Of a stretch of DNA of 64,000 bases, positions 22,393 through 61,021 are shown one piece after another (position 1 is the stretch's first letter; every line of letters begins with the position of its first letter). The stretch is from Alistipes sp. GTDB lineage: Bacteria > Bacteroidota > Bacteroidia > Bacteroidales > Rikenellaceae. The DNA lies in contig JAFLRR010000009.1 in assembly GCA_022511345.1 (NCBI GenBank), positions 15,442 to 79,441 of the forward strand. The letters are read 5' to 3'. The notes beneath the pieces were generated by a model. The model saw only the letters and a list, made by a program, of their open reading frames with translations. It was not told the DNA's origin and did not search any database. A program made the translations under genes and the position numbers.

Positions 22393-24306
22393 ATGGAAAA
22401 GTTCATCGTCAGCGCACGAAAATACCGTCCCGCGACATTCGCATCGGTCGTAGGACAGAAACATATAACTTCGACGCTCAAAAATGCAATAGAGCGCAAC
22501 CAGCTCGCGCACGCATATCTGTTCTGCGGCCCGCGAGGCGTGGGAAAGACGACCTGCGCGCGAATATTCGCCAAGGCGATAAACTGTCTGAACCCAACGG
22601 GCGCCGAGGCTTGCAACGAATGCGAATCGTGCCGCAGCTTCAACGACGGCCGCTCGCTGAACATACACGAGCTCGACGCTGCTTCGAACAACTCGGTAGA
22701 CGACATCAGAACGCTCATAGAGCAGGTGCGGATAATCCCGCAGTCGGGCCGGTACTCGGTATTCATAATCGACGAGGTGCACATGCTCTCGGCGGCGGCA
22801 TTCAACGCATTCCTCAAAACGCTCGAGGAGCCGCCCGCACACGCCATATTCATCCTGGCGACAACCGAAAAGCACAAAATAATACCGACGATTCTGTCGC
22901 GCTGCCAAATCTACGACTTCAACCGCATCAGAGTCGAGGATTCGGTCGAATATCTCAAATACATAGCTGCACAGGAGGGAATAACATCGGACGACGAGTC
23001 GCTGAACCTCATAGCGCAGAAGGCTGACGGAGGTATGCGCGACGCGCTGTCGATGTTCGACAAGGCCGTATCGTTCTGCGGACAGACGCTCGACTACCGC
23101 GAAGTGGCCAAAACGCTCAACGTGCTCGACTACGACACCTATTTCAGAATAACGGACCTGCTGCTCGGCGGCGACTACCGCTCGGCGCTGCTGGAGTTCG
23201 ACTCGGTGCTCGGCCGCGGATTCTCGGCGCAGACATTCGTGACGGGATTCAACAAGCATCTGCGCGACCTGCTGGTGGCCAAAGACCGTGCGACGCTCCA
23301 TCTGATGGAGATGACAGGCACGCTGCTGGAGCGATACTGCTCGCAGGGCGGGCGATGCGAGGCGGATTTCATATTCGGCGGAATGTCTCTGCTGACCGAA
23401 ACGGACGGAAAGCTGAGGATGTCATCGAACCAGAGACTGCTGGTGGAACTCACGCTGATGAAAATCGCCGGCATGGGTCAAAAAAAAAATAGCGGACCCG
23501 ACCTCCCGTTAGCGGATTTCACGGCCGAACAACCTCGCAGACAGACTCAAAGCGAATCGCCACAGGCTCAGGAGGCAGCACATGTTAAGGCTCAGGAGGC
23601 GCCGGTTGCAGAGACGGCGGCGCTGAAGGCTCAGGCTGTGCCGGCTGAGGCACCGGTTGCGGAGCAGGCTGCAGCGAAACCTGCAGAAACGGCGGCCACG
23701 ACGGCTGTTGCGGCACCGGCTGCACAGGTACAGGCTGCGACTCAGTCTGCCGAAACGGCCTCTGCGACGGCGTTGCAGGCGGATATAAAGGCCGAGGAGT
23801 CGCGGCAGCAGAGCACGGCAGCCAGGGCGGCAAGACGGCCGTCGGTGTCGGGAACGTCGATTTCGTCGCTGCTGAACATGGCTCCGGCCGACAGCGACAA
23901 CGGCAGCGACAGCGAGCCGAAAGAGGCGGCGACGGTTGCACTGACGGTAGACCCGCAGGCCGGACAGAAGCTCGCGGCGGCCCGCAACACGATATATGAA
24001 GAGATAAGGCGCAAGCGGCCGCGCTTCACGGCTGCATTCGAGAATATGGCATTCGACGGCAGCGTAATAAAGCTCAGGGTGCCCTCGCAGGCGCTGTGCG
24101 ACGAGATACTGCGCACCAAGATGGAGCTGCTGACGCGCATAGCCGAGATGGCAAAAGTCAGCGGCTCGCTGGAGATGGAGGTGACTGTCGACGAGAGCAT
24201 CAAGGCCTCGAAACCCATAAAGCTCGAGGACAGACTGAAATACATAACTGAAAAGAATCCGCTCGTGGCCGACCTGCGCAAGGCACTCGACCTGGACATG
24301 GAGTAG
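22393..24306 (+). CDS. dnaX: DNA polymerase III subunit gamma/tau
   Basis: ARKYRP, GPRGVGKTT, CNECESC, ELDAASN, IIDEVHML, FLKTLEEPP, SRC, GGMRDALS. Confidence 0.97.
   Translation: MEKFIVSARKYRPATFASVVGQKHITSTLKNAIERNQLAHAYLFCGPRGVGKTTCARIFAKAINCLNPTGAEACNECESCRSFNDGRSLNIHELDAASNNSVDDIRTLIEQVRIIPQSGRYSVFIIDEVHMLSAAAFNAFLKTLEEPPAHAIFILATTEKHKIIPTILSRCQIYDFNRIRVEDSVEYLKYIAAQEGITSDDESLNLIAQKADGGMRDALSMFDKAVSFCGQTLDYREVAKTLNVLDYDTYFRITDLLLGGDYRSALLEFDSVLGRGFSAQTFVTGFNKHLRDLLVAKDRATLHLMEMTGTLLERYCSQGGRCEADFIFGGMSLLTETDGKLRMSSNQRLLVELTLMKIAGMGQKKNSGPDLPLADFTAEQPRRQTQSESPQAQEAAHVKAQEAPVAETAALKAQAVPAEAPVAEQAAAKPAETAATTAVAAPAAQVQAATQSAETASATALQADIKAEESRQQSTAARAARRPSVSGTSISSLLNMAPADSDNGSDSEPKEAATVALTVDPQAGQKLAAARNTIYEEIRRKRPRFTAAFENMAFDGSVIKLRVPSQALCDEILRTKMELLTRIAEMAKVSGSLEMEVTVDESIKASKPIKLEDRLKYITEKNPLVADLRKALDLDME
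23480..23492 (+). other. A10 slippery run in dnaX with TAG in the -1 frame
   Basis: GGT CAA AAA AAA AAT AGC. One extra A gives CAA AAA AAA AAA TAG. Confidence 0.75.
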
Positions 24307-42144: not shown

Positions 42145-42215
42145 TTGAACTGCCCGGATTCGAACCGGGAACGACAGAACCAAAATCTGCTGTGTTACCG
42201 TTACACCACAGTTCA
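42145..42215 (-). tRNA. tRNA-Gln (anticodon TTG), CCA not encoded
   Basis: TGAACTG/CAGTTCA acceptor stem, anticodon arm GCAGA-TTTTGGT-TCTGT, T arm GGTTCGAATCC. -7 element at 42239-42246. Confidence 0.96.
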
Positions 42216-57109: not shown

Positions 57110-57826
57110 ATGGATAAAAAAGACAAGCAATCGCTCAACCGCAGACTTCTGCTGATATATGTCTGCTACTTCGTGGTCATAGGATTGGGGTTCTTTCTCA
57201 GCTACATGCCCGTATTCTCGCGCGGATTCGCCGCAGGGATGGACGCCGCCCAGCAGGAGATAGAGTCGTCGAGCCATGGAATCGAAAAGCGATGGTATCT
57301 CTTCTCGGTACACCCCTCTCTATTCTCGGAACACAGCATCGCCATAGACTCGCGCTACGAGAACATCGGAATAGAGCTCAGCGGATACGACGCATTGGCA
57401 GCGGTGACCGTCAGCAGCACCGACCCGGACAACGACCCGGCATTCGCAATGGTCTCGCGCAACTACACCAAGACCATGTTCATCTCGATGGGCATATCGC
57501 TCTCGTGGCTGGCGATTCTCATACTCATAGGAGTCATTATCAACTCGCTGCGGCGCAGCATACGCGACCAGCGCCCGCTGCCCGACAGCAATATACTTTA
57601 CATGCGAATCATCGGAATACTGATAATAGCCAGCGAGCTGCTCAAGGCCTTAGCCTACCACATAGGCCAGCAGACCGTGCAGCAGATAGCAGACCGGACG
57701 ATGTCGTTCATCAACTCCTATCCCATCGAATACGGAAACATAGTGCTGGGTCTGCTGGTGCTCTTCTCGGCCGAGGTATTCGCCATAGGCGTGCGGCTCG
57801 GCGAGGAGCAGAGACTAACGATTTAG
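57110..57826 (+). CDS. DUF2975 family membrane protein
   Basis: TM segments and C-terminal LFSAEVFAIGVRLGEEQRLTI. Typical pairing with a downstream HTH gene. Confidence 0.85.
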   Translation: MDKKDKQSLNRRLLLIYVCYFVVIGLGFFLSYMPVFSRGFAAGMDAAQQEIESSSHGIEKRWYLFSVHPSLFSEHSIAIDSRYENIGIELSGYDALAAVTVSSTDPDNDPAFAMVSRNYTKTMFISMGISLSWLAILILIGVIINSLRRSIRDQRPLPDSNILYMRIIGILIIASELLKALAYHIGQQTVQQIADRTMSFINSYPIEYGNIVLGLLVLFSAEVFAIGVRLGEEQRLTI

Positions 57827-57922: not shown

Positions 57923-57931
57923 GGGGGGGGG
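57923..57931 (+). repeat. G9 homopolymer 6 nt upstream of the HTH start codon
   Basis: CCCGA-GGGGGGGGG-TAAGCG-ATG. Confidence 0.9.
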
Positions 57932-58201: not shown

Positions 58202-61021
58202 ATGAAGCGATTTCTGATTTCGGCGGCAGCGTTGCTGACAGCAGCAACCTCCGTCCTGGCGCAGAATGCACCGATTCCCCTCGACCCTGCCGTCCGTTAC
58301 GGCAAGCTGGAGAACGGCATGACGTACTACGTGCGCCACAACGAGAAGCCCAAGGGACAGGCCGATTTCTACATCCTGCACAACGTGGGCGCCATTCAGG
58401 AGAATGACGACCAGCAGGGTCTGGCCCACTTCCTGGAGCACATGGCATTCAACGGAACCAAAAACCTGCCCGACAAGATGCTCATCGAGTATCTGGAGAA
58501 AGTGGGTGTGAAGTTCGGCGCGAACCTCAACGCCGGCACCTCGTGGGACTACACGCTCTACAACATGAGCGACGTGCCCACCACTCGCGAAGGCATAATC
58601 GATTCGGCGCTGCTGATTCTGCACGACTGGTCGTCGTTCATAACCCTCGCACCCGAGGAGATAGACAAGGAGCGCGGCGTAATCATGGAGGAGCTGCGCA
58701 CGCGCGACGGCGCGCAGTGGCGCTCGACAATCCAGATGCTCAAGGCTATAGGCAAAGGCACCAAGTATGCCGAGCGTAACCTGATAGGCTACCTCGACGG
58801 TCTGAAGTCGTTCGGTCACGACCAGCTGGAGGCTTTCTACCACACGTGGTACCGCCCGGACTACCAGGCCGTTATCGTCGTGGGTGACGTGGATGCCGAC
58901 GCCGTTGTAGGCAAAATCAAGACGCTCATGGCCGATGTGCCGGCTCCGGCGGCAGACGCCCCGCAGAAGGAGGTGATAGTAGCGCCCGTCAACGAAGAGC
59001 CCATAGTCTCGATATTCACCGACCCCGAGATGATCCGTTCGTCGGCCTCGCTCTACATCAAGCACCAGGCGATGCCCAACGAACTGAAGGGCACCATGGC
59101 CGGATATTCGGTCAACGTACTGACCAACTACATCGGCATGATGGCCAACTCGCGCCTGCGCGACATAGCCCAGAAGCCCGACGCGCCCTTCCTGGCAGCA
59201 TCGCTGCGCTACGGCAGCATGGGCATCTGCCCCACTGCCGACATGCTGACGCTCGGAGTTGTTACCGAGGACGGCAAGCTCATCGAAGGTTTCGAGGCCG
59301 CTTATGCCGAGCTTGAGAAGATTCGCCGCTACGGATTCACCGACAGCGAGTTCGAGCGCGCGCGCAACGAGATGATGCGCTATGCCGAGCAGGAGTATGC
59401 AAACCGCAACGACCGCAAAAACGAGTCCTACGTACACGACTACGTGTCGCACTACCAGTCGAACGACCCGACACCCGACGCCGAGACCATGTGGAAGATA
59501 GACAGCATGCTTATCAGCTCGATACCCGTCGAGGCAGTCAACAACATAGCCTCGCAGCTGGTAACGCCCGAAAACCGCGTGGTAATAGTCAACGCCCCCG
59601 AGAAGGAGGGTCTGGTAAATCCCACTGCCGAGCAGCTTACAGCCGTGCTGGCCAAGGTCGATGCCGCTGAGCTCGCAGCTCACCAGGACAACGCCGTAAA
59701 CGAGCCTCTGATTGCCGACGAGAGCCTGCTGAAGGGTTCGCCCGTGGTGAGCGAGAGCAGCAACGAGGCATACGGCACTACGGAGTGGACGCTCAAGAAC
59801 GGAATCCGCATAATCGTCAAGCCCACAAAGTTCAAGGCCGACGAGGTGCTCTTCCAGGCCGAGTCGTTCGGCGGAACGTCGGTGCTCGACAATGTCGACT
59901 ACTACACCGGAAAATACATCTCGTTGTTCGAGTCGACCGGCGGCGTGTCGAAATTCTCGGCTGCCGACCTTCGCAAGATGCTCTCGGGCAAAAATGCCAA
60001 CGTGATGGTCAACGCCGACGATTACAGCAGCTACATGTCGGGCTCCTGCTCGCCCAAGGATATCGAAACCATGCTTCAGCTGGCATATCTGCGCTTCACC
60101 GAACCCCGCTTCACCGAGGACGACTTCGCAACCGCCATGAAGAGCATGCGTTCGCAGACCGCCAACCTGCGCGCAAACCCCATGTACATCCTGCAGGACC
60201 AGTTCTACAAGACACTCTACAACGACAACTTCCGTCAGCAGGTGCTGAGCGACGATGTGCTCAACATGATAGACTTCACGCGTCTGGGCGCCGTTCATGC
60301 ACAGCTCTTCCCCAGCGCCAACAGCTTCCTGTTCACCTTCGTGGGCAATGTCGACACCGAGACGCTCAAGCCTCTGGTCGAGAAATACCTCGGTTCGCTG
60401 CCCACAAGCAAGGATTACCTCAACTTCGCCGATGACGGCGTACACAAGGTAAGCGGCATTGTCGTAAACGACTTCAAGACCCCGATGCAGCAGCCCAAGG
60501 TGAGCGTGCTCTATGCGTTCAACGGCCCGGCTGACTACACCATCGAGAACCGTCTGGCCATGACGTTCCTCTCGCAGGCACTCTCCTCGCGCTATTTAGA
60601 GTCCATCCGCGAGGAGAAGGGCGGCACCTACGGCGTACATGTCAACGGAGGCATCTCGCCGCTGCTCGACCGCCGCTACGACATGATAATACAGTTCGAC
60701 ACCAACGAGCAGATGGCTGACGAGCTGTGCGAGATAATCATGGAGGAGTTCGAGAAGATTGCCGCCGAGGGTCCCCGCGACGACGACTTCAACAAGACGC
60801 GCGAATACCTGCTCAAGGAGTGGGACAACTCGCTCGAGGAGAACCGCCGCTGGGTAAGCCGCATCGGCGAGTACAACTTCTACGGTCTGGACTACATAGC
60901 CGACTACCCTGCCGAGCTGAAGGCCATGAACAAGGAGAAGGTAGGCAAGCTGGCCCGCACGATTCTCGACAACAAGAACATGGTCAAGATAATCATGCGC
61001 CCCGAGGCTGCCGCCGAGTAG
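58202..61021 (+). CDS. M16 family zinc peptidase (PqqL-like), secreted
   Basis: Signal peptide, GKLENGMTYYVRHN, GLAHFLEHMAFNGT (HxxEH), EEIDKERGVIMEE, SIREEKGGTYGV. Confidence 0.94.
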   Translation: MKRFLISAAALLTAATSVLAQNAPIPLDPAVRYGKLENGMTYYVRHNEKPKGQADFYILHNVGAIQENDDQQGLAHFLEHMAFNGTKNLPDKMLIEYLEKVGVKFGANLNAGTSWDYTLYNMSDVPTTREGIIDSALLILHDWSSFITLAPEEIDKERGVIMEELRTRDGAQWRSTIQMLKAIGKGTKYAERNLIGYLDGLKSFGHDQLEAFYHTWYRPDYQAVIVVGDVDADAVVGKIKTLMADVPAPAADAPQKEVIVAPVNEEPIVSIFTDPEMIRSSASLYIKHQAMPNELKGTMAGYSVNVLTNYIGMMANSRLRDIAQKPDAPFLAASLRYGSMGICPTADMLTLGVVTEDGKLIEGFEAAYAELEKIRRYGFTDSEFERARNEMMRYAEQEYANRNDRKNESYVHDYVSHYQSNDPTPDAETMWKIDSMLISSIPVEAVNNIASQLVTPENRVVIVNAPEKEGLVNPTAEQLTAVLAKVDAAELAAHQDNAVNEPLIADESLLKGSPVVSESSNEAYGTTEWTLKNGIRIIVKPTKFKADEVLFQAESFGGTSVLDNVDYYTGKYISLFESTGGVSKFSAADLRKMLSGKNANVMVNADDYSSYMSGSCSPKDIETMLQLAYLRFTEPRFTEDDFATAMKSMRSQTANLRANPMYILQDQFYKTLYNDNFRQQVLSDDVLNMIDFTRLGAVHAQLFPSANSFLFTFVGNVDTETLKPLVEKYLGSLPTSKDYLNFADDGVHKVSGIVVNDFKTPMQQPKVSVLYAFNGPADYTIENRLAMTFLSQALSSRYLESIREEKGGTYGVHVNGGISPLLDRRYDMIIQFDTNEQMADELCEIIMEEFEKIAAEGPRDDDFNKTREYLLKEWDNSLEENRRWVSRIGEYNFYGLDYIADYPAELKAMNKEKVGKLARTILDNKNMVKIIMRPEAAAE

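Follow-up and report, generated by a model that had tools for sequence, protein, structure and literature searches.

A run of ten A's in dnaX of Alistipes sp. as a probable transcriptional slippage site for the production of gamma and tau

Does the dnaX gene of Alistipes specify one product or two? The question is posed by a run of ten A's within the dnaX open reading frame (ORF) of Alistipes sp., carried on a stretch of contig JAFLRR010000009.1 (64 kb, 58% GC) which was analyzed as a whole and is referred to below as the window. The best relatives of the window proteins are named Alistipes, and the closest genome loci come mostly from Alistipes and other Rikenellaceae. A preliminary description of this DNA had suggested that the run is a recoding site at which a short, gamma-like form of DnaX is produced besides the full-length, tau-like form. 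We consider it probable (roughly 0.65) that the run is a programmed site of transcriptional slippage of the Thermus type, through which gamma and tau would both be made from the one gene. In this analysis we read directly where the run lies, namely where domain III ends, which frames and stops surround it, and how far it is conserved; from this anatomy, and from comparison with known systems, we infer the mechanism and the preference for a transcriptional over a ribosomal event.

The dnaX gene and its A10 run

The gene and its parts are as follows.

22393–24306, + strand: dnaX ORF, specifying in the zero frame a tau-like DnaX of 637 residues and 69.5 kDa (ORF list, Pfam and PDB matches)
22393–23489, + strand: part common to tau and the predicted gamma, clamp-loader domains I–III through the A run (aligned with E. 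coli DnaX from residue 3 to approximately residue 364)
23480–23489, + strand: putative A10 slippery run in CAA AAA AAA AAT, codons 363–366 (sequence, conservation and codon usage)
23490–23492, + strand: TAG stop in the frame of extra A's (1, 4, 7 and so on) or of a −1 shift, which would end a 366-residue gamma in ...GQKKK (sequence reading)
23510–23512, + strand: TAG stop in the frame of one A fewer or two extra A's, which would end variants of 372 or 373 residues in ...QKK(K)IADPTSR (sequence reading)
23494–23937, + strand: tau-only low-complexity linker rich in Ala, Gln, Pro and Glu, approximately residues 368–515 (translation; unalignable among relatives)
23938–24303, + strand: tau-only folded C-terminal domain, residues 516–637, absent from the predicted gamma (conservation and AlphaFold2)

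The product was recognized through Pfam (DNA_pol3_delta2 [1.3e-46], DnaX ATPase lid [2.2e-13] and AAA) and through the PDB chains of E. coli tau/gamma, which match over residues 4–410 with an E value of about 1e-66. Both identify an N-terminal AAA+ clamp-loader module (domains I–III) homologous to E. coli gamma. The run had been described as lying exactly where the clamp-loader domains end and the linker begins, and this was borne out by two alignments. Among the best 120 homologues conservation is near-complete through ...GLGQKKN and then collapses, and in the HMMER alignment to E. coli DnaX VELTLMKIAGMGQK stands opposite VEMTLLRALAFHPR at approximately residues 351–364, that is, the end of domain III. 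The A run itself aligns with approximately residue 364 of the E. coli protein, and crystallised gamma constructs stop at 368–373. On its 3' side come the two tau-only parts, a linker of some 150 residues followed by the C-terminal domain of some 120.

A base-by-base check places the A10 at the positions and the codon originally given, reading GGT(362) CAA(363) AAA AAA AAT(366) AGC, where Gln363 is the first codon to touch the run. The two alternative readings proposed for it proved to be correct as well. One extra A, or a −1 shift, leads to QKKK and the abutting TAG, with a predicted product of 40.8 kDa (366 residues). With one A fewer, or after a +1 shift, the reading is QKKIADPTSR up to the TAG at 23510–23512, and the predicted product has 372 residues; two extra A's would lead to one of 373. 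The predicted gamma forms would range from 40.8 to 41.6 kDa, against 69.5 kDa for tau. Nearby stops are present in both of the non-tau frames, 0 and 6 codons 3' of the run.

The A10 is the longest homopolymer of the window and the only run of at least 8 inside a long ORF; the others, three A8 and one G9, all lie between long ORFs. As an A or T run of at least 9 in the coding strand it stands, at 23480–23489, immediately after the clamp-loader core. Within the 33 long ORFs of the window CAA accounts for 7.4% of Gln codons, AAA for 28% of Lys codons and AAT for 21% of Asn codons, and the probability of obtaining CAA AAA AAA AAT for the peptide QKKN is approximately 0.0012; the run is therefore more than one would expect by chance. 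The TAG which abuts it in the extra-A frame is also uncommon, since in that frame only 0.3% of the control positions, taken from the N-terminal codons of the gene, have a stop so near, and their median distance to one is 94 codons.

Several other features were noted around the run. Both off-frame stops sit in a heptamer, TAGCGGA, which is repeated 20 nt apart (tagcgga cccgacctcccgt tagcgga; 23490–23496 and 23510–23516). The repeat may be a small duplication or may be due to chance, and was not seen in the relatives inspected. An inverted repeat, GGGTC (23475–23479) and GACCC (23495–23499), brackets the A10 and would leave the run in a 15-nt loop; it was rejected as a functional element, being unconserved in other Rikenellaceae. 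Its local fold does not outperform shuffles (z −0.9). A site scan gave no intrinsic terminator-like or promoter-like site at the run, and the Rfam search gave no family near dnaX, its sole match in the window being a tRNA at 42145–42215.

Conservation of the run and closure of the other frames

If the run has a function one would expect it to persist in relatives, a check which the preliminary description had also named. We collected 80 Bacteroidales dnaX loci in one scan of species-representative genomes and placed the border between domain III and the linker by tblastn. An A run occupies this border, at codons 362–372, in 52 of the 80 loci. All of the 37 closest loci hold an unbroken A10 or A11. 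These belong mostly to Alistipes, Tidjanibacter, Rikenella and other Rikenellaceae, together with a few from Paludibacter and from unclassified Bacteroidales metagenome-assembled genomes (MAGs), and the remaining run-bearing loci are from further Paludibacter, Tenuifilaceae, Dysgonomonas and unclassified Bacteroidales. It had been stated that AAG codons breaking the run in close orthologs would speak against recoding; no such codon was seen in these 37 loci, and the best 120 protein matches keep GQKKN. Throughout the 52 loci the length is A10 (40 loci) or A11 (12 loci), never 8, 9 or 12, and never shorter or longer than these. One Bacteroidales MAG (L036) has a second A10 run in dnaX, approximately 40 nt 3' of its A11 run (…CCGGTAAAAAAAAAACAGTACA).

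The run is met in all three codon phases, examples being CAA AAA AAA AAT, AAA AAA AAA AAT, GAA AAA AAA AAC, TTA AAA AAA AAA G and GGT AAA AAA AAA ACT. The flanking residues vary with the lineage (QKKN, EKKKD, LKKKD, GKKKT and others) and the total of A's stays at 10 or 11. Because the flanks differ while the A's sum to the same length, the constraint is one upon the nucleotides and not upon the peptide. In each of the 52 loci the Lys codons of the run are without exception AAA. Only 14 further A or T runs of at least 9 occur in 537 kb of the related loci, as against the 52 loci with a run at the dnaX border. We conclude from this comparison of sequences that the A run is under selection.

One might suppose that there is no recoding, that only tau is made, and that the run is kept as a Lys-Lys(-Lys) hinge, for some role of an A-tract in the DNA or mRNA, or through mutational bias. 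A K-K(-K) peptide is indeed encoded in every run-bearing locus, and both the gamma protein and the variant mRNAs are predictions here. However, a constraint upon the protein would permit AAG, which makes up 72% of the Lys codons of the genome and is used in none of the 52 runs, and the neighboring codons (CAA, GAA, TTA, ATA, AAT, AAC) are the very ones which stretch the run to 10–11. Furthermore, the DnaX proteins of the Bacteroides type do without KK(K), and the closure of the other frames immediately 3' of the run, to which we turn below, would be left unexplained. We therefore regard this explanation as improbable.

A second set of sequences came from a pattern scan of metagenome contigs, in which the conserved ...GGYC was required to be followed by at least A8. 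The 121 matches comprise 111 with A10 (92%), four with A11, three with A9 and three with A8. The base 3' of the run is T in 113 of the 121, giving TGA in 93, TAA in 13 and TAG in seven; in these contigs, then, a stop normally abuts the genomic A10 tract in the extra-A frame.

The same data bear upon the idea that the run is a contingency tract at the level of the DNA, with replication slippage switching between A10 (tau on) and A9 or A11 (tau off, gamma only) in a form of phase variation. Homopolymers of 10 are hypermutable (PMC1088944), and the zero frame is closed in 10 of the 121 metagenome contigs and in five of the 52 genome loci. Against this, tau is essential in the bacteria studied (bioRxiv 10.1101/2022.11.10.516041), and because of this the off state would be lethal unless slippage occurred. 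The variants are mostly found on low-coverage or possibly long-read contigs, in which homopolymer errors are to be expected, and in contigs from four sequencing runs the tract of a mouse Alistipes locus (L003) reads A10, no indels being listed there. The tract is stable at A10 in 111 of the 121 contigs, and is therefore not mainly a DNA-level switch; we think phase variation highly improbable.

What lies 3' of the run was analyzed in 53 sequences, the 52 run-bearing loci and the window. In every one of the 53 a stop is reached no more than 11 codons past the run in each of the two non-tau frames, and the median is three codons. The stop in the extra-A frame abuts the run in 33, and that in the one-fewer-A frame lies within five codons in 46. 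The set was thinned to 35 representatives, among which more than half of the 36 nt downstream of the run differ, and the per-locus control fractions were combined by Fisher's method. In the extra-A frame the resulting p value is approximately 3e-17 and in the one-fewer-A frame approximately 5e-7; neither is exact, since the lineages retain some dependence upon one another. Closure of both frames is the argument that was used for slippage in Thermus thermophilus (PMC5009743; PMC1088944). A −1 ribosomal shift does not need the second frame to be closed, whereas such closure would be expected if the transcripts came to include some that have gained A's and some that have lost them.

In E. coli, gamma is produced by −1 ribosomal frameshifting at A_AAA_AAG, assisted by an upstream Shine-Dalgarno-like motif and a downstream stem-loop. 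The likeness to the window lies in the outcome, a C-terminally truncated gamma which ends one codon past a Lys-rich slippery site and which is predicted here. The E. coli site is at approximately codon 430, within the linker, while that of the window is at codon 363, the end of domain III. One would then have to ask whether gamma is mainly made in the window by −1 programmed frameshifting on A_AAA_AAA (23481–23487), ending at the TAG at 23490–23492 on mRNA that is homogeneous for A10. An in-phase A_AAA_AAA heptamer is present here and in every run locus whatever its codon phase, most lineages (33 of 53) have the run-abutting stop in the −1 frame, and the product, of 366 residues, would be identical.

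The stimulators of the E. coli site, however, are missing from the window. The absence of a strong 3' hairpin, which had been remarked upon earlier, is upheld by folds of 61 and 101 nt, which score z +0.70 and +0.93 against shuffles, and the upstream ATCGCCGGCATGGGTC, read directly, is without a GGAG-type Shine-Dalgarno-like motif. The heptamer is A_AAA_AAA and not A_AAA_AAG, and in E. coli the former is reportedly much less prone to shifting than the latter (PMC5009743). No locus ends a minimal heptamer of 7 A's in AAG; the run always has 10–11, three or four beyond the seven which the ribosome would require. Moreover, the remaining frame, for which a −1 shift has no use, is closed across lineages as well (p of about 5e-7). 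Ribosomal frameshifting is, in our opinion, unlikely to be the principal route to gamma.

Probable slippage at the run and comparison with known systems

The favored reading, transcriptional slippage, accommodates the length of the run. In the elongation complex 10–11 A's match the full length of the RNA:DNA hybrid. RNA polymerase would read a T10 template, at which the whole hybrid of 9–10 bp would be rA:dT, and because the hybrid would consist entirely of rA:dT the nascent RNA would be able to realign by at least one base without mismatch. The outcome would be a mixture of mRNAs with A10, A11, A12 and some A9. Those with A10 and A13 would be translated into full-length tau of 637 or 638 residues, in which a disordered linker is followed by the conserved C-terminal domain; those with A11 would stop at the abutting TAG and give the 366-residue, 40.8-kDa gamma ending in GQKKK; and those with A9 and A12 would stop at the second TAG and give products of 372 or 373 residues. 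Gamma would retain domains I–III and lose the tau-only part. A minor share may be contributed by −1 ribosomal slippage on A_AAA_AAA, which would yield the identical 366-residue product. In E. coli domains I–III suffice for clamp loading, and it is the tau-only part which tethers Pol III alpha and DnaB.

The preliminary description had favored RNA polymerase over the ribosome, and the length of the run, the closed frames and the missing hairpin lend support to this at the level of sequence, from which we infer the molecular event. Conservation of the length of a run among homologues makes purposeful transcriptional slippage very likely according to Baranov et al. (2005, PMC1088944). Both the run and its length are conserved here, as the 52 of 80 loci, always with A10 or A11, and the 111 of 121 contigs with A10 indicate.

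A number of points weigh against this reading. The variant mRNAs and the 41-kDa protein are predictions here, and a search for RNA runs matching the dnaX of the window gave none. In the contigs of relatives the tract is A10 and indels are not listed, which is neither support nor refutation as contigs drop minority variants. The literature searched gave no measured slippage propensity for the RNA polymerase of Bacteroidota. The second stop of the window had been grouped with the first as near-immediate; the abutting TAG deserves that term, but a stop six codons 3' of the run is matched by 38% of control positions in this gene, and the second closure becomes significant only across lineages. Two further points concern the loci in which the frames are reversed, which are MAG contigs at approximately 2–28x coverage and may reflect homopolymer errors of assembly, and the equation of the C-terminal domain with domains IV/V of E. 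coli tau, which is weak, depending as it does upon fold matches at E 0.035 or poorer.

Among the nucleic acid data for the locus, the DNA runs X1–X4 cover the dnaX of the window too thinly to inform on run length, and a run search with the A. senegalensis locus (L001) returned only contigs of related species. The mouse Alistipes locus L003 was matched by many metatranscriptome runs, in the form of assembled contigs, and these have A10 across the run. Joints from 4100 to 4989 in L003 were considered as a deletion of the tau part and rejected; they are chained contigs of co-occurring, divergent Alistipes whose linkers are unalignable, and one 1590-nt contig spans the region intact. In the 200 nt upstream of this dnaX, at L003:2801–2994, contig depth is 200–570 as against approximately 20 over dnaX (runs X10 and X11), and several contigs branch there. 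An Rfam scan of L003 found nothing. The stretch may be repetitive, or may encode a small RNA that is highly expressed; its equivalent in the window is a gap of only 90 nt.

In 47 of the 52 run-bearing loci, as in the window, the zero frame encodes tau. In the other five (L025, L026, L051, L061 and L069) the zero frame stops 1–4 codons 3' of the run and the C-terminal region of tau continues in the +1 frame, so that one A fewer or two more would be needed to reach it. This is the opposite direction to the −1 cases of Antonov et al. (2013). The five may be real alleles or may be MAG homopolymer errors; should they prove real, tau, which is essential, would have to be supplied through efficient slippage.

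The closest known system is that of T. thermophilus, in which slippage on an A9 in dnaX has been demonstrated experimentally (Larsen et al. 2000, as related in PMC1088944 and PMC5009743). According to these accounts the two share a single tau ORF, a sense-strand A run after the clamp-loader core and nearby stops in both other frames; they would also share the lack of need for ribosomal stimulators and a short product without the C-terminal part of tau. They differ, on the same accounts, in that the window has A10 (A10 or A11 in relatives) and that slippage is proposed here by analogy, and in that the run of the window begins at codon 363 of 637, right where domain III ends, which would give a gamma without any linker. 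Judged by its sequence the window combines the architecture of Thermus, in which the zero frame encodes tau, with membership of the Bacteroidetes lineage.

Within that lineage a related arrangement has been reported. Antonov et al. (2013) predicted, from conservation, transcriptional realignment at an A10 in dnaX (PMC3711429, Supplementary Fig. S3) for Flavobacterium johnsoniae, F. psychrophilum, Cytophaga hutchinsonii, Capnocytophaga ochracea, several Chlorobi and Coraliomargarita. Gene and run are the same, and the neighborhood, Bacteroidetes/Chlorobi, is broadly that of the window. In their two-ORF genes, however, the zero frame terminates past the run, so that standard decoding yields gamma and a shift is required for tau, whereas in the window the situation is reversed and tau is standard. 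The Rikenellaceae and other Bacteroidales lie outside the 2013 set. In Caulobacter crescentus two DnaX forms likewise come from one gene, as is proposed here, but by a post-translational route without a slippery nucleotide signal, namely ClpXP proteolysis of tau to gamma (bioRxiv 10.1101/2022.11.10.516041).

The tau-only region, the loci without a run, and implications

If gamma ends at the run, what does tau have in addition? The linker gave no match to a Pfam family. The C-terminal domain has a mean column identity of 70% over 14 relatives and a core predicted by AlphaFold2 with a pLDDT of about 84, and is a real tau-only domain. It found no Pfam match even at an E value of 10 and no PDB sequence match, and Foldseek returned only weak matches: DciA [8a3v_D, E 0.035, TM 0.45], DnaA domain I and, only at rank 23, E. 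coli tau in 5fku. Because of this lack of Pfam and PDB matches, and the weakness of those from Foldseek, we do not equate it with domain V of E. coli tau. The best of the weak fold matches point to KH-like domains of replication proteins. The C-terminus of tau in Bacteroidales may represent an uncatalogued domain family.

Another type of sequence occupies the border in part of the loci which have no run. The following loci, of Bacteroides, Phocaeicola and Prevotellaceae type, conserve GGG CNN NGC CCN at approximately codons 371–374, that is, GGGC-NNN-GCCC.

GGGC-NNN-GCCC motif (for example, L046:4114–4124), 21 loci: L038, L042–L047, L054, L055, L057, L059, L062, L065, L066, L068, L070, L071, L073, L075, L076, L078

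The Gly codon of the motif is GGG in all 21, and elsewhere in the same genes GGG usually makes up 0–30% of Gly codons. The amino acid of the third codon varies (Ser, Gly, Cys or Arg) and the GC is kept; two of the changes in the motif are G·U-compatible. In most of the loci, but not in all, TAG or TAA occurs in the −1 frame at the motif, and a conserved (I/L)KP(I/V)F peptide follows 3' of it. A hairpin at this motif is unproven because there is no covariation. Conservation at the nucleotide level at the same border suggests another, undescribed signal, and the motif may be a different signal for making gamma or for pausing.

One could go further and propose that the dnaX border of Bacteroidota is a site at which gamma-producing devices are exchanged, with the A10/A11 tract in most families and a GGGC-NNN-GCCC mini-hairpin replacing it in Bacteroidaceae/Prevotellaceae. 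There could be occasional flips between tau-in-frame and gamma-in-frame, and the motif could serve as a signal for recoding, for pausing or for the processing of mRNA. We hold this proposal to be rather doubtful.

Away from dnaX, the G9 at 57923–57931, the only long G/C homopolymer of the window, lies between the ORFs at 57110–57826 (+ strand) and 58202–61021 (+ strand, 939 residues). Within a leader or promoter region it may serve as a phase-variable tract of the slipped-strand type.

Our literature searches on dnaX recoding in Alistipes, Rikenellaceae, Bacteroidales and Bacteroides gave nothing beyond Antonov et al. (2013) and the Atkins (2016) review. The kind of mechanism is thus already known; its extension to the Rikenellaceae and other Bacteroidales is new.

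If transcriptional slippage at the run is confirmed, the Rikenellaceae, a major gut family, and many other Bacteroidales would make tau and gamma through slippage of RNA polymerase. Annotation of dnaX in such genomes should then give two products, and two-ORF variants of the gene in MAGs should not be labelled pseudogenes. It would follow that the RNA polymerase of Bacteroidota slips efficiently on A10, which would bear upon other genes interrupted by homopolymers and upon the engineering of these organisms, and the gene would provide a natural, conserved reporter of slippage efficiency. Finally, a densely sampled clade would be added to the evidence that selection keeps both forms of DnaX.

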